Source of the DNA: a virus
DNA: 6,300 nt
Strand: one strand, 5' to 3'
UHGV virus genome: UHGV-1436680
The position numbers were made by a program, and so were the translations under genes. The notes under the pieces are model-generated. The model did not search any database. It had not been told where the DNA came from and worked only from the letters and a program-made list of their open reading frames with translations. This document shows, one piece after another, positions 1-6,300 of the stretch; the first letter of the stretch is position 1, and every line of letters starts with the position of its first letter.

Positions 1-66
1 CAAGCAGAAGACGGCATACGAGATAGGAGTCCGTCTCGTGGGCTCGGAGATGTGTATAAGAGACAG
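1..66. other. Illumina Nextera adapter (technical, not biological): P7 flow-cell sequence, 8-nt i7 index, transposase adapter and mosaic end
   Basis: 1-24 is CAAGCAGAAGACGGCATACGAGAT (P7); 25-32 AGGAGTCC is the reverse complement of GGACTCCT (the Nextera N705 index as I recall it); 33-66 is GTCTCGTGGGCTCGG followed by the mosaic end AGATGTGTATAAGAGACAG. Confidence 0.95.
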
Positions 67-237
67 CAGATAAACAGCCTTGCCAGATTCCTTACCATCC
101 CACGGCTTAAACTCGCCATTGTCCGCCAGCATCAGCGGGGTAAATTCCTGAATAACGCCAGCATCAGCGGCAAAATGTACCAGCGTCGTGGCGACCTGCT
201 GACTGCCTGCAAATAACTCAATGTATGGAGTGTCCAT
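67..237 (-). CDS. Hypothetical protein, 5' part only (57 codons, truncated by the adapter junction); next gene downstream of the capsid gene
   Basis: ATG at 237-235 (complement) sits 5 nt after GGGGGA and 11 nt after the capsid stop. The frame stays open to the insert edge: MDTPYIELFAGSQQVATTLVHFAADAGVIQEFTPLMLADNGEFKPWDGKESGKAVYL. Not in the ORF track because it has no stop. Family not recognised. Confidence 0.5.
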
Positions 238-248
238 AGAATCCCCCG

Positions 249-1304
249 TTAACCAATTTTGACGGTAACAAATTTACGAATATCTGCCGGAACCGGCTGC
301 GGTGCGCTGTGCGTCTGCACGTACTCAATCGCCGGATCGCCGTCCCCAATCCAGTTTTTCGGGTAAAACATGTTTTGCGTTGCGCCCGTTCTTACTGCGT
401 CCTGATCCATAATCGCACCATAGGCCACCAGCCCTTTATTGTTGGTGTTGCCCAGAACCAGCAAATCAGGCTCAAGGAAATATTTTTCTGTGCCGTCGCT
501 GTCAGTGTATTTGCCGGAATAGACGATAAGGGCAATATCGCCCAGATAGCCTTTAAAGCTCACCACTTCGCCCAGGTTTTTACAGGCCAGTTCGGCGGCG
601 GACTCTGAACCACGGGAAAGATCGTACAGCTCACGGAATTTTTTAAAGCTGCGTAACGTGCGCCATACCTCAGCGCCCATAATCATGACGTTTGCGGGGC
701 AACCAGCCTGATCAGCATAAAGCTCGATGTCATAGATTGGGTCGTGCATGTCTTTATCCTGCTCGGACCATTTTTTACCCTTGGCCTGCTCTATGATGCA
801 GTTTTCCGGTATTTTCCAGTCGATTTCATAGCGTTCTATGCCTTCGCCCTCAATGATGTTTTTTCCGGTCGTTATCGCATTCACCGCCAGCCATTCCACG
901 CGCGCTTTAATGGCGTTTACCTGGCGGCGCATGTTGCCAGTAATCAGGCGCATACGGCGGTAGGTAGGGTCGTTAAGCTGTGCCGGATCTTCTCCAGCCA
1001 TGCGCATGATGGTTTTTGTTGGATCGATTTCGTGCTTTGGCTTCATGTAGCCAGGTTTAATTGTGCTGGTTTCGTACCCTTTATCGCGCTGTACCTGGCT
1101 GCCAACCATAGGCGAACAAAACGCCGACATGGTGACTTCTTCAATGTCCAGGGTATCCAGCATGATGTTTTGCGTGCTGAATGTCGCCACGTTCGGGAAA
1201 AACAGCGTAGTAAACAGAGGGTTGAATTTAAAATCCGCAATATCCCCGCGATTCAGGTACATGAAAAGCTGGTTAGTGTTAAGTGCCGTTGCTTTGCCTG
1301 TCAT
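249..1304 (-). CDS. Major capsid protein, phage lambda gpE family (351 aa)
   Basis: Blocks match lambda gpE as I remember it: FKFNPLF (lambda FKFDPLF), PGYMKPKHEI (PGYVKPKHEV), GEDPAQLNDPTYRRMRL (DEDPQNLADPAYRRRRI), FKGYLGDIALIVYSGKYT (YKGMYGDVAIVVYSGQYV), VLGNT, YPKNW, GDPA, SAP. Length is similar (351 vs about 341 aa). SD GGGGGTGA lies 4 nt before the ATG. Confidence 0.9.
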   Translation of the reverse strand: MTGKATALNTNQLFMYLNRGDIADFKFNPLFTTLFFPNVATFSTQNIMLDTLDIEEVTMSAFCSPMVGSQVQRDKGYETSTIKPGYMKPKHEIDPTKTIMRMAGEDPAQLNDPTYRRMRLITGNMRRQVNAIKARVEWLAVNAITTGKNIIEGEGIERYEIDWKIPENCIIEQAKGKKWSEQDKDMHDPIYDIELYADQAGCPANVMIMGAEVWRTLRSFKKFRELYDLSRGSESAAELACKNLGEVVSFKGYLGDIALIVYSGKYTDSDGTEKYFLEPDLLVLGNTNNKGLVAYGAIMDQDAVRTGATQNMFYPKNWIGDGDPAIEYVQTHSAPQPVPADIRKFVTVKIG

Positions 1305-1510
1305 TATTCACCCCCGTGAACCTGATTCATACCCAGCGCCGCGCGTAAATAGGCGCGTACCTGCCAGCCTGTTGACGGCTCAACCATCGCCAGCGGATCA
1401 AGTCCTGCCGCAATGCCTGCTTTTACGTTCTGCTGGTGGCGTTCCTTGAGCGCCTTCACGATGTCGGGGCTTATGTACACCGAAACACCGCCTTTTTTCT
1501 CTTCAGCCAT
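1304..1510 (-). CDS. Hypothetical small protein (68 aa), translationally coupled to the capsid gene; not lambda gpD-like
   Basis: Its TAA stop overlaps the capsid ATG by one base (TAATG). SD AAGAGGAA lies upstream of its ATG at 1510. It is the first ORF after the promoter/operator region. The segment GVSVYISPDIVKALKERHQQ is weakly reminiscent of a ribbon-helix-helix strand-helix, with no firm homology. Confidence 0.5.
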   Translation of the reverse strand: MAEEKKGGVSVYISPDIVKALKERHQQNVKAGIAAGLDPLAMVEPSTGWQVRAYLRAALGMNQVHGGE

Positions 1511-1538
1511 AGTAAGAAATTCCTCTTTGACTTAAAAA

Positions 1539-1568
1539 ATCATAACTGGATGTTCATCCAGTTATGAT
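1539..1568. promoter_or_regulatory. Perfect 30-bp palindrome (14-bp arms, 2-bp spacer), candidate operator over the capsid-unit promoter and start site
   Basis: ATCATAACTGGATG (1539-1552), TT, CATCCAGTTATGAT (1555-1568); the arms are exact reverse complements. It abuts and overlaps further palindromes: TGATTATAATCA (1565-1576) and ATCATGAT (1573-1580). Confidence 0.6.
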
Positions 1569-1594
1569 TATAATCATGATTGCATTTTGTGCAA
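1567..1594 (-). promoter_or_regulatory. Putative sigma70 promoter for the 68-aa/capsid transcription unit
   Basis: On the minus strand: -35 TTGCAC (complement of 1589-1594), 16-nt spacer, -10 TATAAT (complement of 1567-1572). The predicted start near 1560 gives a leader of about 50 nt to the ATG at 1510. By-eye prediction only. Confidence 0.45.
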
Positions 1595-1675
1595 TGATAT
1601 TGAGTTGCGTTGCAAATTATGAAATGATTATCCCGATCATGTGTGTCAGTGCACCAAAAAACCTCATATGCAAAA

Positions 1676-1714
1676 GCCCGATAAGATGCCTCCTGTACTT
1701 ATCGGGCTTTTTTT
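1676..1714. terminator. Intrinsic terminator hairpin, strongest for the plus strand, possibly bidirectional
   Basis: Stem GCCCGATAAG (1676-1685) pairs with CTTATCGGGC (1698-1707) around a 12-nt loop, followed by T7 (1708-1714) on the plus strand and preceded by AAAA, which gives a shorter U tail on the minus strand. Confidence 0.6.
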
Positions 1715-1720
1715 GGGTAC

Positions 1721-1743
1721 AAAAAAGCCGGATTACTCCGGCT
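1721..1743 (-). terminator. Rho-independent terminator ending the minus-strand replication/SSB operon
   Basis: Read on the minus strand just after the TAA stop at 1749-1751: AGCCGGA, loop GTAA, TCCGGCT, then TTTTT(T). A 7-bp GC-rich stem with a T tail. Confidence 0.65.
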
Positions 1744-1748
1744 GTTGA

Positions 1749-2021
1749 TTAGCTGTCTGGGTAATTACGCCATATTTCATCGCTTACACCATCTATACCC
1801 ATTTCAGCATAAGTGCGATCTACTGCCTTTCTCAGGTCTCCGAAGTTATCCGGCGGCTCCGGTGGCTTCTGTGCCTTCCTGGAACATTCCAGCCGTCGCA
1901 TCGTAACCTGATGCCGTTCCTTGTCTGTCTCCACCAGCAGCATGACTTCACCCCATCGCGCCGATGCCCTCCGGTAAAAGCCTTTTGCCTCGAGTTCCTC
2001 CGCTATGCGGTCATGTACCAT
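1749..2021 (-). CDS. Small hypothetical protein (90 aa), possible helical regulator (ANR-family-like resemblance is tentative)
   Basis: Start chosen at the ATG at 2021, which follows GGGGGTGACG located 10 nt after the SSB stop. The 130-aa track ORF would overlap SSB by about 110 nt. Sequence begins MVHDRIAEELEAKGFYRRASARWGEVMLL...; the family call is a weak recollection only. Confidence 0.5.
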   Translation of the reverse strand: MVHDRIAEELEAKGFYRRASARWGEVMLLVETDKERHQVTMRRLECSRKAQKPPEPPDNFGDLRKAVDRTYAEMGIDGVSDEIWRNYPDS

Positions 2022-2031
2022 CGTCACCCCC

Positions 2032-2442
2032 TCAGAACGGAATATCATCACCGTAGGGGTCATCGTCTCCCGCTGGTGGCTGATTACCCTGTGTGCCTGT
2101 GGTTTTGCGTCTGTTCCCGCCAGGACGTGCCGCACGGGCACTGATTACGCTGTCTGCAATAACCTGATAACCCTGCCGCGTTTCCCCGTTCTGTCCGGTC
2201 CACTGGCTGACCTGCATCGTGCCGGATACGCTGGCAACGTCGCCTTTTTGATGTTTAGCCAGGAAGTCGGCCTGCTTACCAAATGCGATGACCGATAGCC
2301 ATAACGTAGCCTGCCCATCCTGCGCCTGACTACATGGCAACGATACCGCCATACGTGCCAGCGTCATTGGTGTGCCCTTGCTGGTCTGTTTTACCTGCGG
2401 GTCGTCCACCAGCCGCCCGTAAGCTGCTATCTGTGCTGTCAT
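2032..2442 (-). CDS. ssb: Single-stranded DNA-binding protein (SSB) homolog, 136 aa
   Basis: The C-terminus DDDPYGDDIPF is the canonical acidic SSB tail ending in IPF. The OB-fold region resembles E. coli SSB, with a Gly/Gln-rich linker (PGGNRRKTTGTQGNQPPAG). The ATG overlaps the upstream stop (ATGA at 2439-2442). Confidence 0.85.
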   Translation of the reverse strand: MTAQIAAYGRLVDDPQVKQTSKGTPMTLARMAVSLPCSQAQDGQATLWLSVIAFGKQADFLAKHQKGDVASVSGTMQVSQWTGQNGETRQGYQVIADSVISARAARPGGNRRKTTGTQGNQPPAGDDDPYGDDIPF

Positions 2443-2690
2443 GATTCCACCTCTCCGGTTTTAACGTTGATGGTTGTCACCTGTTCAGCTTCCGCAATCT
2501 CCCGCTCTGTCAGCGTGGCAAAATTTGCCGCCGTCGTGGTCATGAATGCGCTTATCAGTTCGGGATGTGCTTTCGCGTATCCTTCCCCCGCGTGGCGGTC
2601 TATCGTTCTGATTGCCACCTTTAAGGCGTGCTCTGTCATGTCTAACGCTTTATATTTTGGCTCTGTTCTGTCTCTGTGTTTTTGAGTCAT
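2439..2690 (-). CDS. Hypothetical protein (83 aa), translationally coupled to ssb
   Basis: Start chosen at the internal ATG at 2690 (MTQKHRDRTEPKYKAL...), preceded by GAGGTGG. The 114-aa track version begins inside the iteron array and is probably an over-extension. Family not recognised. Confidence 0.5.
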   Translation of the reverse strand: MTQKHRDRTEPKYKALDMTEHALKVAIRTIDRHAGEGYAKAHPELISAFMTTTAANFATLTEREIAEAEQVTTINVKTGEVES

Positions 2691-2692
2691 TT

Positions 2693-2893
2693 GCCCACCT
2701 CTACCCACTTTTTTCGCCCACTTTTTACGTTTTCCCACTTCGTCCAACGTGGGAAATTTGGGATTTATATCATCTTGTTTCATAGGTATTTTTTAGTGCC
2801 CACTTTTTGGGATATATACACGTGGGAAAGTGGGTAATTTTGTTAAAATTCCGTTAAATCGCCCACCTTTCCCACTTTTAATGCCCACTTTTT
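2693..2893. repeat. Iteron array, putative origin of replication
   Basis: Core CCCAC, usually followed by a T-run (GCCCACTTTTT), occurs 8 times in direct orientation (starting about 2694, 2704, 2717, 2734, 2799, 2862, 2871, 2884) and 3 times inverted as GTGGG (2749, 2822, 2830). Includes the inverted pair TTTCCCAC-N10-GTGGGAAA (2731-2756) and an AT-rich stretch (2757-2820). It lies immediately 3' of the Rep gene and overlaps its stop codon. Confidence 0.7.
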
Positions 2894-4301
2894 ACAGTGG
2901 TCCTACATCATCACCGTCAATGTAGATCACGTCGTCTTTTTCCAGTTTGGCTAACCATCGTTTAAGGTGTTTTGTGTCATACTCCAGCTTTTTCATATCG
3001 TCACGTAACAGCGGGATCGTGCACTTGTCGCCGTGCTGTGTGCGTGAACGTATGCATCCCCATAGCGCGGTATGGTTTTCCGTCTTGTTGCCTGCCTCCT
3101 CGATGCGCTCCAGTTCAACGGGAGGGCGCGGCTTATCCACCACCACCAGCGACGTGATTAACTCCCCGTCAGCGTCGGTAAAAAGCTCCACCACGCGTAA
3201 GTCATATGCGGCTTCTTTGAGTTCCTCCGCGTCCTTCATTTTGGTGCATGAGATAACCAGCGCTTCGCTTCCTGCGTCCTCCCTGCGTATCCGGTATTCA
3301 GCATCCAGCGAAGCACGAAATGCACTGGAACCGCGCGCGCCTTTCGTCTCATCCTTGCCGGAATGGTGAACCACCAGCACCGTGGCCCCTGTGCGTCGTT
3401 TCAGTTCGTCACAACCACGGATAAACGCCCCCATATCACGGGAATCATTTTCATCATTACCACCAAAGCAACGCGCCAGCGTATCCAGAATAATCATGCG
3501 AACAGGTTTACCCGTTTCCCTCTCCACCTGACGGGCAGCGATAACCATTTCATCAACATCAAGCGGGACCGCCGGAAAGATGGGACGGTTTACCAGATAC
3601 AGATTTTTCACCTGCTCACCGTGCACAACCTCCCAGGCTTTTACACGACGCGGAACGCCGATACCGCCTTCACCAACCACATAGAGAACAGCGCCATGCG
3701 CCACCCTGCGGCCTCCCCACTGGCGGCCCGTGGAAACGTGACACGCCCACGATCCGGCAAGGAATGATTTATAGGAACCGCTCGCCCCGTATATGCTGCA
3801 AAGCGACGATGCCGGAATAATCCCCTTTACCACGTAATCAAGCTGTGTGTCGTATCCGGTAGATCCAACGCTCATCGGTAGCGTGGTTTTTCGCTGGGGG
3901 ATTTTTTTCATGACCAGGCTTTCCCCGCGTTCCCATGCCTCCCTAAGCCGTGGAAGCTGGTCGCTCCATTCCTCCAGCAATTCGAAATTTTCAGAAAGTA
4001 GCCGCGCCTCCTGGACTCCGGCGATCGCCAGTTTCGTGGCGATGGTTAACAGCTGCGGCTCTTCAATATTTCCGGCGCGTATCACCGTCGCCCTGTATCG
4101 CCCATCATCAACAATCTGGAGGTTATCCAGTTCGCTTAACTGATAACGCCCCAGATAAACGGGAGGGACTGGATCTCCTGCTTTTTTTGCCTGTGCAATG
4201 ATGTAATGCTCTGCGAATGAATGAGCATCAATACCCGCAAAAATAATCGCATCGGTGTATTTATCTTTCGGTAATCGTTTTACGTTCGGTGCCAGTTTCA
4301 T
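2892..4301 (-). CDS. Replication protein, RepA/DnaB-like RecA-fold helicase-family ATPase (AAA_25-like), 469 aa, with an unassigned N-terminal domain of about 150 aa and a C-terminal putative DNA-binding region
   Basis: P-loop-like GASGSYKS (complement of 3765-3788), Walker B-like VRMIILDTLARCFGG, and VLVVHHSGKD...GSSAF matching the hhhHHxxK...GssA pattern of RepA-type helicases. Strong SD AGGAG 7 nt before the ATG. Start overlaps the upstream stop (ATGA at 4298-4301). Iterons lie directly downstream. No primase motifs seen. Confidence 0.8.
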   Translation of the reverse strand: MKLAPNVKRLPKDKYTDAIIFAGIDAHSFAEHYIIAQAKKAGDPVPPVYLGRYQLSELDNLQIVDDGRYRATVIRAGNIEEPQLLTIATKLAIAGVQEARLLSENFELLEEWSDQLPRLREAWERGESLVMKKIPQRKTTLPMSVGSTGYDTQLDYVVKGIIPASSLCSIYGASGSYKSFLAGSWACHVSTGRQWGGRRVAHGAVLYVVGEGGIGVPRRVKAWEVVHGEQVKNLYLVNRPIFPAVPLDVDEMVIAARQVERETGKPVRMIILDTLARCFGGNDENDSRDMGAFIRGCDELKRRTGATVLVVHHSGKDETKGARGSSAFRASLDAEYRIRREDAGSEALVISCTKMKDAEELKEAAYDLRVVELFTDADGELITSLVVVDKPRPPVELERIEEAGNKTENHTALWGCIRSRTQHGDKCTIPLLRDDMKKLEYDTKHLKRWLAKLEKDDVIYIDGDDVGPL

Positions 4302-4597
4302 TTTTTACTCCTGAATCCGTTAATCATGGTTTTCAGCTTCTGGATGTTTGCCCGTGCCCTGGCGTTGCTGGTGGGCACGTTATGCGGCGCGGTCTGTACC
4401 AGAGAAAAATCACGCCGGAACTGATAAACAGGCATCACGCAATCATATTCGTAACCTTCACGGCGGTAGGTTACGCGCCGTTCTTCCACGCCCTTAATCA
4501 TTACCGTGCCGCCGTACTGGTCGCGGTAAATATCACCGCGCGTAAATTTAGGGTGAGTGTTGCCACTGGCAGTTAAGCCAGAATATTTAAGTTTCAT
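4298..4597 (-). CDS. Hypothetical protein (99 aa); possible DUF4222-like small protein of the kind found upstream of satellite replication genes (low-certainty recollection)
   Basis: ORF with GGAGA upstream of the ATG, coupled to the Rep start by an ATGA overlap. Contains the motif RVTYRREGYEYDCVMPVYQFRRDF. Confidence 0.55.
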   Translation of the reverse strand: MKLKYSGLTASGNTHPKFTRGDIYRDQYGGTVMIKGVEERRVTYRREGYEYDCVMPVYQFRRDFSLVQTAPHNVPTSNARARANIQKLKTMINGFRSKK

Positions 4598-4602
4598 TAT
4601 TT

Positions 4603-4836
4603 TTATTCTCCGGTGTGCTGTTCGTTATATCTGTCGTGCAATGTCTCTATTTCCTGCAACTCATTTATTACAGGCTCAAGAAGCGTTATTAATGATGTAA
4701 TAATCCGCGTTTTTTTTGCATTACGTTCATTATCGCCAAAGGATTCAAGGCACATCCGCAATATTTCGTACATACCTTCAGCGTAAGCAAGGGCACTAAA
4801 TGCGCGGTCTATTGTTTCAAGATAAATATCACGCAT
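4603..4836 (-). CDS. Hypothetical small protein (77 aa)
   Basis: ATG preceded by GAGGA. The start overlaps the stop of the upstream ORF by 8 nt (ATGCGTGA). Lies in a low-GC stretch. No family recognised. Confidence 0.5.
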   Translation of the reverse strand: MRDIYLETIDRAFSALAYAEGMYEILRMCLESFGDNERNAKKTRIITSLITLLEPVINELQEIETLHDRYNEQHTGE

Positions 4837-5062
4837 GGCTTACATCCTCAGGAAATTTTCTTCTGTAACGCGCCTCTGCCACATATTCCGCATAATCGGC
4901 GGCGATATTCAGTACATCAAGTCCCGTTGATTTATATTCTTTCGTGGAAAGTAAGAAAAAAGCCGCTCTAATAAGTTCTGGCATTGACGAAAGCGCATCA
5001 GCCGCATCATCAGGAACGCCGGAAAATTCTTGTTTCAGGGAATTAAAACGATCATCACGCAT
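4829..5062 (-). CDS. Hypothetical small protein (77 aa)
   Basis: The ATG immediately follows the G9 tract (GGGGGGGGGTTATG). The ORF overlaps the 3' end of the upstream ORF by 28 nt. No family recognised. Confidence 0.5.
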   Translation of the reverse strand: MRDDRFNSLKQEFSGVPDDAADALSSMPELIRAAFFLLSTKEYKSTGLDVLNIAADYAEYVAEARYRRKFPEDVSHA

Positions 5063-5277
5063 AACCCCCCCCCATTTTCACAATCAGCAACAAGAATATT
5101 TTTAGCGTCATTCAGCGACCGCGTTGCGATGTATCGGATACATTCCAGGGCGAACTGTGTCCGGTCTTTCTGTTCTTCTCCCTGCGCAAGCTCTGCCGTG
5201 CATTCAATATCAATAAGCGCGTGCATCAGCGTAGTGAGTGCGGCGGCTGCTGCGTTCGGTGTGGTTTTATTGTGCAT
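5035..5277 (-). CDS. Hypothetical small protein (80 aa)
   Basis: Start chosen at the internal ATG (MHNKTTPNAAAAAL...) preceded by GGGGGA. The 3' end reads through the G9 tract (ENGGGLCVMIVLIP). Predicted helical; no family recognised. Confidence 0.45.
   Translation of the reverse strand: MHNKTTPNAAAAALTTLMHALIDIECTAELAQGEEQKDRTQFALECIRYIATRSLNDAKNILVADCENGGGLCVMIVLIP
5065..5073. repeat. Homopolymeric C9 (G9 on the coding strand) tract at the junction of two overlapping small ORFs
   Basis: Nine consecutive C at 5065-5073, read directly from the sequence. Confidence 0.9.
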
Positions 5278-5467
5278 AGGTTTCCCCCTGACGAATACGG
5301 GCGGCGAATACAGCAACACAACCGGACGGGCAACGGCTACGCGCTTCGCGTTCCGTCCAGGCGGTTACGTGGATGATTTGAGATTCTCCGGCACTCAGGG
5401 CCAGAAAACGCCACACAAAGGCCGTTTGTGTGTGTACAAGGTGTGGTATATGATTTACGGCAACCAT
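5267..5467 (-). CDS. Hypothetical small protein (66 aa), possible first gene of the minus-strand early operon
   Basis: ATG at 5467 preceded by a strong SD (AGGAG, 5-nt spacer). The frame is open for 66 codons (MVAVNHIPHLVHTQTAFVWRF...). The stop lies 8 nt downstream of the next ORF's ATG. Support is start context only. Confidence 0.35.
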   Translation of the reverse strand: MVAVNHIPHLVHTQTAFVWRFLALSAGESQIIHVTAWTEREARSRCPSGCVAVFAARIRQGETYAQ

Positions 5468-5557
5468 AACGGCTCCTAGTTTACGTTGTTGGTTAGAAGC
5501 CCTGCGAGTGGTAATGACACTTGCGGGGCTTTGCTTTTTTAAGTGCTCTTGTGTTAA

Positions 5558-5601
5558 GGTGACCACCTAACAATGGAAAGGCTAATTCAATAGGTGACCA
5601 C
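5558..5601. promoter_or_regulatory. Two copies of GGTGACCAC(C) in the divergent intergenic region; candidate operator half-sites
   Basis: GGTGACCACC at 5558-5567 (near-palindrome, arms GGTG/CACC) and GGTGACCAC at 5593-5601, 35 bp apart. The second overlaps the SD and start of the Arc-like gene. A weak -35/-10 candidate (TGACCA, 17 nt, TAATTC) overlaps the first copy. Confidence 0.4.
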
Positions 5602-5793
5602 TTGTCAACAATCAAACGCGATAAAAGCCCTAAAGGGGACGGGCAATCCCCACAATTCAGAATGCGAATTTCTCCAGAGCTAAAAGAGCAATTCGACAAA
5701 GAAGCACAGAGCGACGGCATAAGCCTAGCCAACTGGCTTAAAGAGTTGGGGCGCACTGAACTAAAGCGGCGCGGCATAGAACCCAAAGGATAA
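5602..5793 (+). CDS. Arc/Mnt-like ribbon-helix-helix DNA-binding protein (63 aa, TTG start)
   Basis: PQFRMRISPELKEQFDKEAQSDGISLANWLKEL aligns with the P22 Arc (PQFNLRWPREVLDLVRKVAEENGRSVNSEIYQRV) and Mnt beta-strand/helix A/helix B pattern. SD AGGTGA lies 4 nt before the TTG. The internal ATG at 5662 would delete the beta-strand. Confidence 0.6.
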   Translation: MSTIKRDKSPKGDGQSPQFRMRISPELKEQFDKEAQSDGISLANWLKELGRTELKRRGIEPKG

Positions 5794-5850
5794 AAACTAT
5801 CAGCGCCGTGGTGTGAGGTATTACGGCGCATTGCTATGCAGGACAACACA

Positions 5851-6024
5851 ATGACCGATAAAGAATTGACCAAAACATTATCACCGGCACGGAAAAGACG
5901 GCGCAGAAAGATAGAGCATGAATCAGAAAGATTCGCACCATGTGCTTTTGCCCTTGAGCAATTCCTTAAAGAGTATAGGGAAAAGCGCTCATTGCAGGTA
6001 TGGCAACGAACTGAACCAGACTGA
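5851..6024 (+). CDS. Hypothetical small basic protein (57 aa)
   Basis: ATG at 5851 with AGGA 7 nt upstream. Arg-rich segment ARKRRRRK. Followed by a terminator. Weak evidence, no homology recognised. Confidence 0.3.
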   Translation: MTDKELTKTLSPARKRRRRKIEHESERFAPCAFALEQFLKEYREKRSLQVWQRTEPD

Positions 6025-6118
6025 TTGCATTGCCCACCAGCCTGATAGCGGCTATCATCCCCGTGCTTATGTTTGGGATCACATACACATAAGGCGCAGC
6101 GGGTTAATTGTTCAGAAA

Positions 6119-6146
6119 GGCGGCTCCATATCGGGGCCGCTTTTTT
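6119..6146 (+). terminator. Rho-independent terminator for the plus-strand Arc-like unit
   Basis: Stem GCGGCTCC (6120-6127) pairs with GGGGCCGC (6133-6140), with one G-U pair, around a 5-nt loop, followed by T6 (6141-6146). Confidence 0.6.
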
Positions 6147-6239
6147 CGTGTTTGTCATATCTGTGATACCCGTTAAGCAGCCGTTCCGCGTGCTTCCTGT
6201 TCGCGTTCTTTCTGCCAGGCCAACACATCATCCTCATAC

Positions 6240-6300
6240 CTGTCTCTTATACACATCTGACGCTGCCGACGAAGAGGATAGTGTAGATCTCGGTGGTCGC
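6240..6300. other. Illumina Nextera adapter (technical): mosaic end, read-1 adapter, i5 index, P5 sequence (reverse-complement orientation)
   Basis: CTGTCTCTTATACACATCT (6240-6258), GACGCTGCCGACGA (6259-6272), AGAGGATA (6273-6280; reverse complement of TATCCTCT, the S503/N503 index as I recall it), GTGTAGATCTCGGTGGTCGC (6281-6300, start of the P5 complement). Confidence 0.95.

Follow-up and report, generated by a model that had tools for sequence, protein, structure and literature searches.

Positions 1538–1569 of UHGV virus genome UHGV-1436680, a stretch of 6,300 nucleotides (nt; the whole of this stretch is called the window here), form a perfect palindrome over the predicted promoter of an operon that encodes a capsid protein homolog. 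The conserved inner 20 bp of this palindrome (1544–1563) is probably an SOS box, i.e., a site for a dimer of the host protein LexA on the capsid-operon promoter. Judged by its gene architecture, the window is a Gram-negative phage-inducible chromosomal island (PICI) of Escherichia coli, of the EcCICFT073 / O-island-51 family. Computed here were the match of the sequence to the LexA box, how rarely such a site arises by chance, where it lies with respect to the predicted promoter, and its pattern of conservation; from these we infer LexA binding, the location of the transcription start and SOS-inducible expression.

In undamaged cells, a LexA dimer at about −3 to +17 would block RNA polymerase at the capsid promoter. 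Following DNA damage, RecA would be activated, LexA would cleave itself, and the capsid promoter would be freed. As DNA damage also induces lambdoid helper prophages, the capsid genes of the satellite would be switched on when the helper is induced. An earlier note on this DNA had read the palindrome as the operator of a dimeric regulator over the capsid promoter and start, allowing gated, possibly helper-triggered, capsid expression. This was right in kind for a dimeric repressor, the proposed binder being LexA, and the gating probably stands; the trigger does not, as it would be the SOS response, which in practice coincides with the induction of helper prophages. The features of the promoter region are the following.

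1544–1563, reading AACTGGATGTTCATCCAGTT on the plus strand, with the AA centre on the minus strand: predicted LexA (SOS) box, at about −3 to +17 of the predicted promoter
1538–1552 and 1555–1569: full perfect palindrome of this island variant, with 15-nt arms and a 2-nt centre, giving a hairpin and then a T-run on the minus strand
1572–1567, minus strand: predicted −10 TATAAT, read from the sequence, inside the palindrome TGATTATAATCA (1565–1576)
1594–1589, minus strand: predicted −35 TTGCAC, with 3/6 matches and a 16-bp spacer, embedded in repeat A
1520–1537, minus strand: 5′ leader with the T-run TTTT(TT)AAGTC and the Shine–Dalgarno (SD) sequence GAGGAA (1525–1520); the ATG is at 1510
1580–1594, extendable to ATGATTGCA-N5-TGCAATGAT (1576–1598): repeat A, the inverted repeat TTGCA-N5-TGCAA, overlapping the −35 and the spacer
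1610–1631: repeat B, TTGCA-N5-TGAAATGATTAT, in which 1610–1624 is the counterpart of 1580–1594, centred near −57

The predicted LexA box and its conservation

The inner 20 bp of the palindrome reads AACTGGATG-AA-CATCCAGTT (core AACTGGATG(AA/TT)CATCCAGTT) and has the form CTG-N10-CAG, the 16-mer core of the E. coli LexA box. The consensus of that box is TACTGTATATATATACAGTA, and the 16-mer CTG-N10-CAG serves as its definition (PMC8072944, PMC2994835). Sites were scored with an additive heterology index (HI) matrix, recovered by regression from 140 published pairs of CTG-N10-CAG sequence and HI for strain K-12 (PSOSP Table S1, PMC12527982); the recovered matrix reproduces all 140 values within 1e-4. 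The box in the window has an HI of 6.81, whichever strand is read, and can be placed among known boxes: recA (4.31), lexA box 1 (6.40), uvrA/ssb (6.98), uvrD (8.80), ruvAB (9.19), cho (9.54) and polB (12.09). The LexA-binding, low-HI cluster of the PSOSP K-12 table extends up to 13.6, and validated boxes lie between 2.4 and 12.9 (PMC12527982). The box in the window is inside the validated E. coli range, and scores better than those of ruvAB, cho and polB. The statement in the earlier note that the palindrome is not a LexA box is contradicted by the CTG-N10-CAG core, by this score and by the ruvAB box, which has the same CTGGAT...ATCCAG arms.

The closest counterparts are the operators of E. 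coli ruvAB (CGCTGGATATCTATCCAGCA) and cho/ydjQ (CACTGGATAGATAACCAGCA), which share with the predicted box the 20-bp CTG-N10-CAG dyad with the less common CTGG...CCAG arms, and the position over a promoter or start site, in the window a predicted one; the HI in the window is toward the better part of the validated range. The predicted box differs from these two in being on a mobile satellite rather than at a DNA-repair gene, and in lying inside a longer perfect palindrome.

The site at 1544–1563 is the only one in the window with an HI of 16 or less, the next-best CTG-N10-CAG having 18.7. A site this good is expected by chance 2.5e-4 times per 6.3-kb window and about 0.2 times per 4.6-Mb genome, and a random perfect palindrome reaches this HI with a probability of 8e-5. 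The predicted box overlaps the predicted start, with 33 nt from the end of the box to the ATG; start-overlapping boxes close to the ATG are typical of genes under tight LexA control (PMC8072944). The overlap with the −10 and the start that the earlier note had described holds for the palindrome as a whole: it takes in the final three bases of the −10, and also the predicted start (about 1562–1558, inside the promoter-proximal arm). The sigma-70 promoter is a consensus reading: since the −35 TTGCAC matches at 3/6 positions and the promoter scan needs 4/6 there, the capsid promoter is missing from this stricter scan. The capsid operon requires a promoter of its own, because two terminators upstream insulate it from the PerC/replication unit.

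The conservation of the region was followed in about 119 related loci, comprising annotated E. coli copies and 112 further loci gathered via the 68-amino-acid (aa) protein encoded by the first gene of the operon. These loci fall into two groups: an E. coli group, and a diverged group (10 loci, about 65% protein identity). Across all of them, the inner 20 bp is the only part of the palindrome that has been conserved as a unit. The box is present at this position in 108/119 loci, with HI values of 5.41–9.61 (7.87 in clone D i14, the CFT073-lineage copy, L005); it is missing from the diverged group and from a single copy that has a 1-nt insertion. The E. coli group shows essentially no variation in the −10, the inner CTGGAT...ATCCAG, the T-run or the SD, and the −10 is TATAAT in nearly all variants (one TATAAC; A3); it is TAAAAT in the diverged group, and the −35 has been kept in both groups. 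In the core of the box, the CTG, the CAG and the adjoining AT dinucleotides are invariant, and the eight types of substitution that occur in the box are at low-penalty positions (mean change in HI, dHI, of +0.57 vs +2.48 for all possible changes, p about 0.001). The conservation of the box among the relatives that have it thus agrees with the sequence requirements of LexA.

In the diverged group, a 75-bp block from 1630 to 1559, containing two related repeats and the −10, is nearly unchanged, and the T-run and SD have also been kept, with unrelated sequence in place of the inner palindrome. Conservation thus runs deepest in the −10 and the upstream repeats rather than in the palindrome.

Several points weigh against an SOS box. 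The box is absent from the 10 diverged loci, in which promoter block, T-run and SD are all retained; this implies that the module can exist without LexA control, which may have been gained recently, or may be dispensable. The capsid-forming PICI of O157 Sakai, at the same chromosomal site, is also without a box ahead of its late genes. The perfect 15-bp arms go beyond what LexA needs. The HI is a predictor, not a proof, the transcription start is a predicted one, and the −35 is weak (3/6). The literature yielded no experiment on LexA binding or SOS induction at this promoter, be it ChIP, EMSA or a suitable transcriptome. The operon has no known phenotype: deletions of c1499 and c1500, as well as replacement of c1498–c1501, leave transfer intact (PMC6092414, PMC10460865), which makes any selection on its timing uncertain. 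As diverged relatives are without the box and the operon is dispensable for transfer in the published tests, the biological weight of the box is uncertain.

The one transcriptome found for an O157 strain under an SOS-inducing antibiotic is RNA-seq of O157:H7 PA20 under sulfamethoxazole–trimethoprim (SMX-TM; PMC5931665 S2), in which ECs1589–1599 were not induced at 5 h and were down at 12 h. This neither supports nor refutes SOS induction, because the reference used for mapping was Sakai, and the late module of its Sp7 differs, as does the late promoter, which is without a box. Literature searches found no SOS box in Gram-negative PICIs and no description of the capsid-operon promoter; those on PICIs with a LexA/SOS box, on AlpA antitermination in PICIs and on expression of c1498–c1501 were likewise negative for this promoter.

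A second, weaker LexA-like box (HI 10.3–11.6) was observed just downstream of the integrase gene, before a small open reading frame (ORF) and the alpA region, at L001:18559–18578 (about 560 bp past the right end of the window), L119:6938 and L120:26150. It is common to the window-type island and to the capsid-forming Sp7 of O157 Sakai.

Symmetry beyond the box

The palindrome is as perfect as the earlier note had described, and one base per arm longer than the 14 given there: a repeat search gave 15-nt arms, 100% complementary, with 2 nt between them. The further palindromes that the note listed, TGATTATAATCA (1565–1576), ATCATGAT (1573–1580) and TTGCA-N5-TGCAA (1580–1594), are all present. 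What does not hold up is the full 30-bp symmetry as a functional unit, as the symmetry outside the 20-bp box is either lineage-specific or due to the near-self-complementary −10 region. The perfection of the arms is not a conserved property: perfect arms occur in only about 35 of the roughly 119 loci, and in most the promoter-proximal arm has one to three mismatches toward its outer end. The three bases leading from the −10 to the inner stem vary (ATAAC, AGAGC, AGATC, AGGAC, ATGAC, ACAAC), and the other arm usually does not follow. Symmetry decays right at the edge of the 20-bp box, where pair 12–33 is unpaired in 11/24 distinct variants. The LexA reading does not depend on the extra symmetry, which on one side is the −10 region, TGATTATAATCA being itself palindromic, and at the variable positions looks lineage-specific; there it was possibly sharpened by template-switch mutation in a quasi-palindrome.

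Natural variants (L011, L050, L080, L051/L054/L055) include flips of the centre from AA to TT or TA, and simultaneous multi-base changes, or one-step "corrections" (L080), that have perfected an imperfect arm (AGGAC with GTTAT becoming GTCCT). Both kinds of change are hallmarks of template-switch mutation in quasi-palindromes.

These mutational dynamics could be taken to account for everything, the symmetry being a functionless by-product of an AT-rich promoter and of a quasi-palindrome. DNA containing TATAAT is nearly self-complementary, the perfection of the palindrome is lineage-specific, and the loop flips and one-step corrections (L011, L050, L080) fit such an origin. It would leave unexplained, however, why the 20-bp core is found in 108/119 loci with its CTG and CAG invariant, and a LexA-grade site has the chance of 8e-5 given above even once a palindrome exists; that the element has no function at all is therefore highly improbable.

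The palindrome could also act as RNA on the minus strand, either as a 5′ stem-loop that stabilises the mRNA, or as an attenuator or intrinsic terminator (a 14–15-bp hairpin with a U-run) that halts read-through, or transcripts begun upstream, ahead of the capsid genes. A hairpin with a T-run was flagged here on the minus strand by the promoter/terminator scan, and the full hairpin, if transcribed from upstream, is strong (−17.7 kcal/mol; z = −5.7 vs dinucleotide shuffles, with 0/200 shuffles as good). An alternative promoter-like site upstream, TTCATA-18-TATCAT (1623–1594), would allow the whole hairpin to be transcribed; its −10, TATCAT, has not been kept in the diverged group. The conserved −10, on the other hand, overlaps the 5′ arm, such that a transcript from the predicted start contains only a 7-bp hairpin (−7.5 kcal/mol, z = −2.1).

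The pattern of substitution was also considered for this reading. In the 24 distinct variants, 94% of cells are paired, double changes occur in 3/15 pairs, and 8 pairs never vary; as evidence that pairing is under selection, this is weak. Pairing survives in a few double changes (ACAAC/GTTGT, AGGAC/GTCCT, TTATAAC/GTTATAA), ten cells have a G–U wobble, which is possible in minus-strand RNA only, and the covariation score is above all 500 shuffles. However, the shuffle control ignores relatedness, and template-switch mutation yields double changes and AA-to-TT loop flips without selection. The inner stem has zero covariation, hairpin-breaking changes within it occur in 6/24 variants in addition to the break at pair 12–33, and hairpin-breaking variants have a lower HI, i.e., a better LexA score (CATACAG, 5.41; TA centre, 5.87; GGATA, lower by 0.54).

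What the palindrome has in common with Rho-independent terminators is a hairpin with a T-run behind it on the coding strand, which the consensus scan picks up. The differences are an AU-rich stem (only four G–C pairs), the overlap with a conserved −10, the lack of covariation in the inner stem, and relatives that keep the T-run without the hairpin: in the diverged group, T-run and SD persist with no stable hairpin (z = −0.7), which suggests that the T-run is not there as a terminator tail. Rfam returned nothing at gathering thresholds, and chance-level matches only at E values up to 10. An RNA element at this position is improbable. A plus-strand small RNA ending at the 1672–1711 terminator was also considered; the scan gave no plus-strand promoter.

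Upstream repeats and other regulators

Repeat B is a direct copy of repeat A, 30 bp upstream of it, with 79% identity in the repeat search. In the block of the diverged group, the repeats have the form ATCATT(T/G)CA-N5-TGCAA and are likewise 30 bp apart. Repeats A and B have been kept in both groups while the flanking DNA and the coding sequence diverged; no other non-coding feature here is as conserved, and loci that lack the LexA box still have them. To judge from this, they are probably binding sites of another regulator. A weak −35 combined with two deeply conserved upstream repeats suggests a second factor at the capsid promoter. More speculatively, antitermination of a helper Q type or AlpA type could act on the hairpin, and the TTGCA repeats could be read as CytR-like. 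It can tentatively be proposed, with rather more doubt than confidence, that the capsid operon of EcCICFT073-type PICIs is under a two-input gate, with host LexA at the start responding to SOS and another factor at the twin repeats (1576–1598 and 1610–1631). If so, the satellite would make its capsid and decoration proteins only if DNA damage came together with another signal, encoded by the helper or the island; the operon would be a Gram-negative, convergent counterpart of operon I of the staphylococcal pathogenicity islands (SaPIs), and a way into the function of PICI capsid homologs.

Another dimeric regulator might instead occupy the palindrome itself, encoded either by a helper phage or by the island (the PerC-like protein, RgdR, AlpA, an Arc-like ORF or the 68-aa product). 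The palindrome of this variant is longer than the 20 bp needed by LexA, several small regulators are encoded in the window (PMC3378721), and the further conserved repeats at the capsid promoter must bind something. Yet, a search for other copies of the half-site, as the earlier note had proposed, gave none beyond chance in the window or in the 10-kb island; changes in the outer arms are uncompensated, whereas those in the core are of the kind expected from the LexA matrix. No phage with a homologous region was found: a blastn search (word size 11) of 1511–1671 against 50,697 phage records gave nothing, and a megablast of the whole window against phages gave no match. Such a regulator at the palindrome is, on this evidence, unlikely.

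The earlier note had added that no cognate regulator is encoded in the window. It had missed two regulators, of the PerC family (1749–2021, minus strand, directly upstream) and of the RgdR/DUF4222 type (4298–4597, minus strand); the claim is moot, however, because the regulator proposed here is the chromosomal LexA of the host. The PerC-like protein was rejected as cognate regulator, as its gene is upstream in 46/91 E. coli-group loci and 0/8 diverged loci, though the promoter block has been kept in all; the PerC-family protein is probably not an obligate partner of the capsid promoter.

The 68-aa product was considered as an autoregulator of the ribbon-helix-helix type (Arc, CopG, MetJ), as it looked beta-alpha-alpha, and was rejected, there being no Pfam or PDB match. 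Its AlphaFold2 (AF2) model (pLDDT 74.5) has no significant structural neighbour (best E 1.7 in Foldseek against the PDB), and no DNA-binding fold was seen. A scan of one genome per species gave no relatives of this protein, which implies that the family is narrow.

The island and known systems

The genes and terminators that bear on the above are the following; all relevant genes, including the capsid operon, are on the minus strand.

4298–4597, minus strand: RgdR/DUF4222
2892–4301, minus strand: RepA-type helicase
2032–2442, minus strand: SSB
1749–2021, minus strand: PerC-family regulator (Pfam PF06069, E 5.8e-45)
1743–1726 then T6, and 1711–1672, minus strand: two terminator hairpins between the PerC/replication unit and the capsid promoter
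1304–1510, minus strand: first gene of the operon, 68-aa protein (phrog_3255)
249–1304, minus strand: major capsid protein homolog of the lambda gpE family (Pfam PF03864, E 1.7e-50; RefSeq annotation), c1499 of EcCICFT073

Bases 62–6239 are 100% identical, over the stretch tested, to an island of about 10 kb beside tRNA-Pro in E. coli MS 21-1. In the order of the minus strand, the genes are those for an integrase, an AlpA-like helix-turn-helix protein, an Icd-like protein, RgdR/DUF4222 and the RepA-type helicase, then the iterons of the origin, SSB and the PerC-family protein, followed by the two terminators, the 68-aa ORF, the capsid and decoration genes, a 137-aa ORF, a terminator and a TerS-like gene. 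This is the gene order of the EcCICFT073-type PICIs (Fillol-Salom et al. 2018, 2019). The capsid homolog of that family is c1499, its decoration homolog is c1500, and its 99-aa protein with an RGD motif is RgdR (PMC6092414, PMC3378721). The capsid operon thus comprises four genes (the 68-aa ORF, the lambda-E-like capsid protein, the gpD-like decoration protein and the 137-aa ORF) and is closed by a terminator past the fourth (L001 11173–11152). The TerS-like gene was considered as a further member of the operon, or as Rpp, and was rejected, with a terminator in between and no PDB sequence match. A 751-bp query around the palindrome, spanning the end of the PerC gene, the intergenic region and the start of the capsid unit, matched in part or in full in 901/5,426 complete E. 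coli genomes; the island type is present in roughly one in six of these.

Control of Gram-negative PICIs has been described at the early promoter, by the helper-induced AlpA, and induction of alpA is SOS-independent (PMC6092414). The nearest analogy for the capsid promoter comes from staphylococci, where operon I of the SaPIs, a packaging and capsid-morphogenesis operon, is controlled by LexA (Ubeda 2007, as reported in PMC6739421 and PMC6092414). In both cases a late capsid/packaging module would be under host LexA (predicted here), with SOS activation alongside helper prophages, and in the window it is indeed capsid (PF03864) and decoration genes that follow the boxed promoter. The hosts, the LexA consensus and the genes are unrelated, the consensus on the SaPI side being of the Gram-positive CGAAC-N4-GTTCG type; the resemblance would be convergent, not homologous. 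Unlike operon I, the E. coli operon is, according to the literature, not required for packaging of the satellite, c1498–c1501 being dispensable for transfer in the published tests (PMC6092414, PMC10460865).

The box in the window can be seen as a new putative member of the SOS-box family, on the capsid operon of a satellite; as such it is an incremental addition that introduces no new principle. Capsid and decoration homologs are the commonest late genes in Gram-negative PICIs, and have no known role. If LexA does act here, part of the satellite would listen directly to DNA damage in the host, as SaPIs do, and genes of a mobile element would join the SOS regulon of pathogenic E. coli, which would be relevant to SOS-inducing antibiotics.

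Several further observations were made on the island. At about 1713–1722, between the two terminators, there is a recombination junction of the replication/PerC and capsid modules (L002–L006, L120), where relatives have one flank in common without the other. Cargo has been inserted at this junction: extra small ORFs in O157, and a gene of the ProQ/FinO family in strain B771. CFT073-lineage strains have about 180 bp of extra non-coding sequence there, where PerC would sit. At the potA–phoQ site, O157 EC4115 has a gpE-type module, and O157 Sakai has a full HK97-type, capsid-forming module.

Illumina/Nextera library adapters make up both ends of the window (1–61 and 6240–6300): on the left, P7, an 8-nt index and the transposase mosaic end; on the right, the mosaic end, an index and P5, reverse-complemented. 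The assembly behind this contig therefore extended into adapter sequence, and the outer 61 or so bases on each side are not biological.

A 63-aa ORF on the plus strand (5602–5793) resembles Arc-like repressors, with a match to phrog_228 at E 5e-7 and one to Pfam HicB that narrowly misses the cut-off (E 5e-4). Over the same DNA, RefSeq has a 221-aa "hypothetical protein" (5493–6158, minus strand) with no family match and an odd composition rich in Cys, Ser and Arg; this RefSeq gene may be spurious, and the small divergent Arc-like regulator real instead. A gene of about 150 aa when intact is split by a run of nine C at 5065–5073 (G9 on the coding strand): the 77-aa ORF at 4829–5062 matches phrog_2512 at profile positions 78–154 only, and RefSeq labels the gene "frameshifted". 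The tract could be a sequencing error, the mark of a pseudogene, or prone to slippage. Between the helicase gene and the next ORF (2693–2895), the repeats GCCCACTTTTT / CCCACTT / GTGGGAAA occur in both orientations with a spacing of about 82–85 bp, as expected of the iterons of a PICI replication origin. A 114-aa ORF (2439–2783) overlaps these iterons; the start given in RefSeq is later, which yields a protein of 83 aa (L001 14140–14391).

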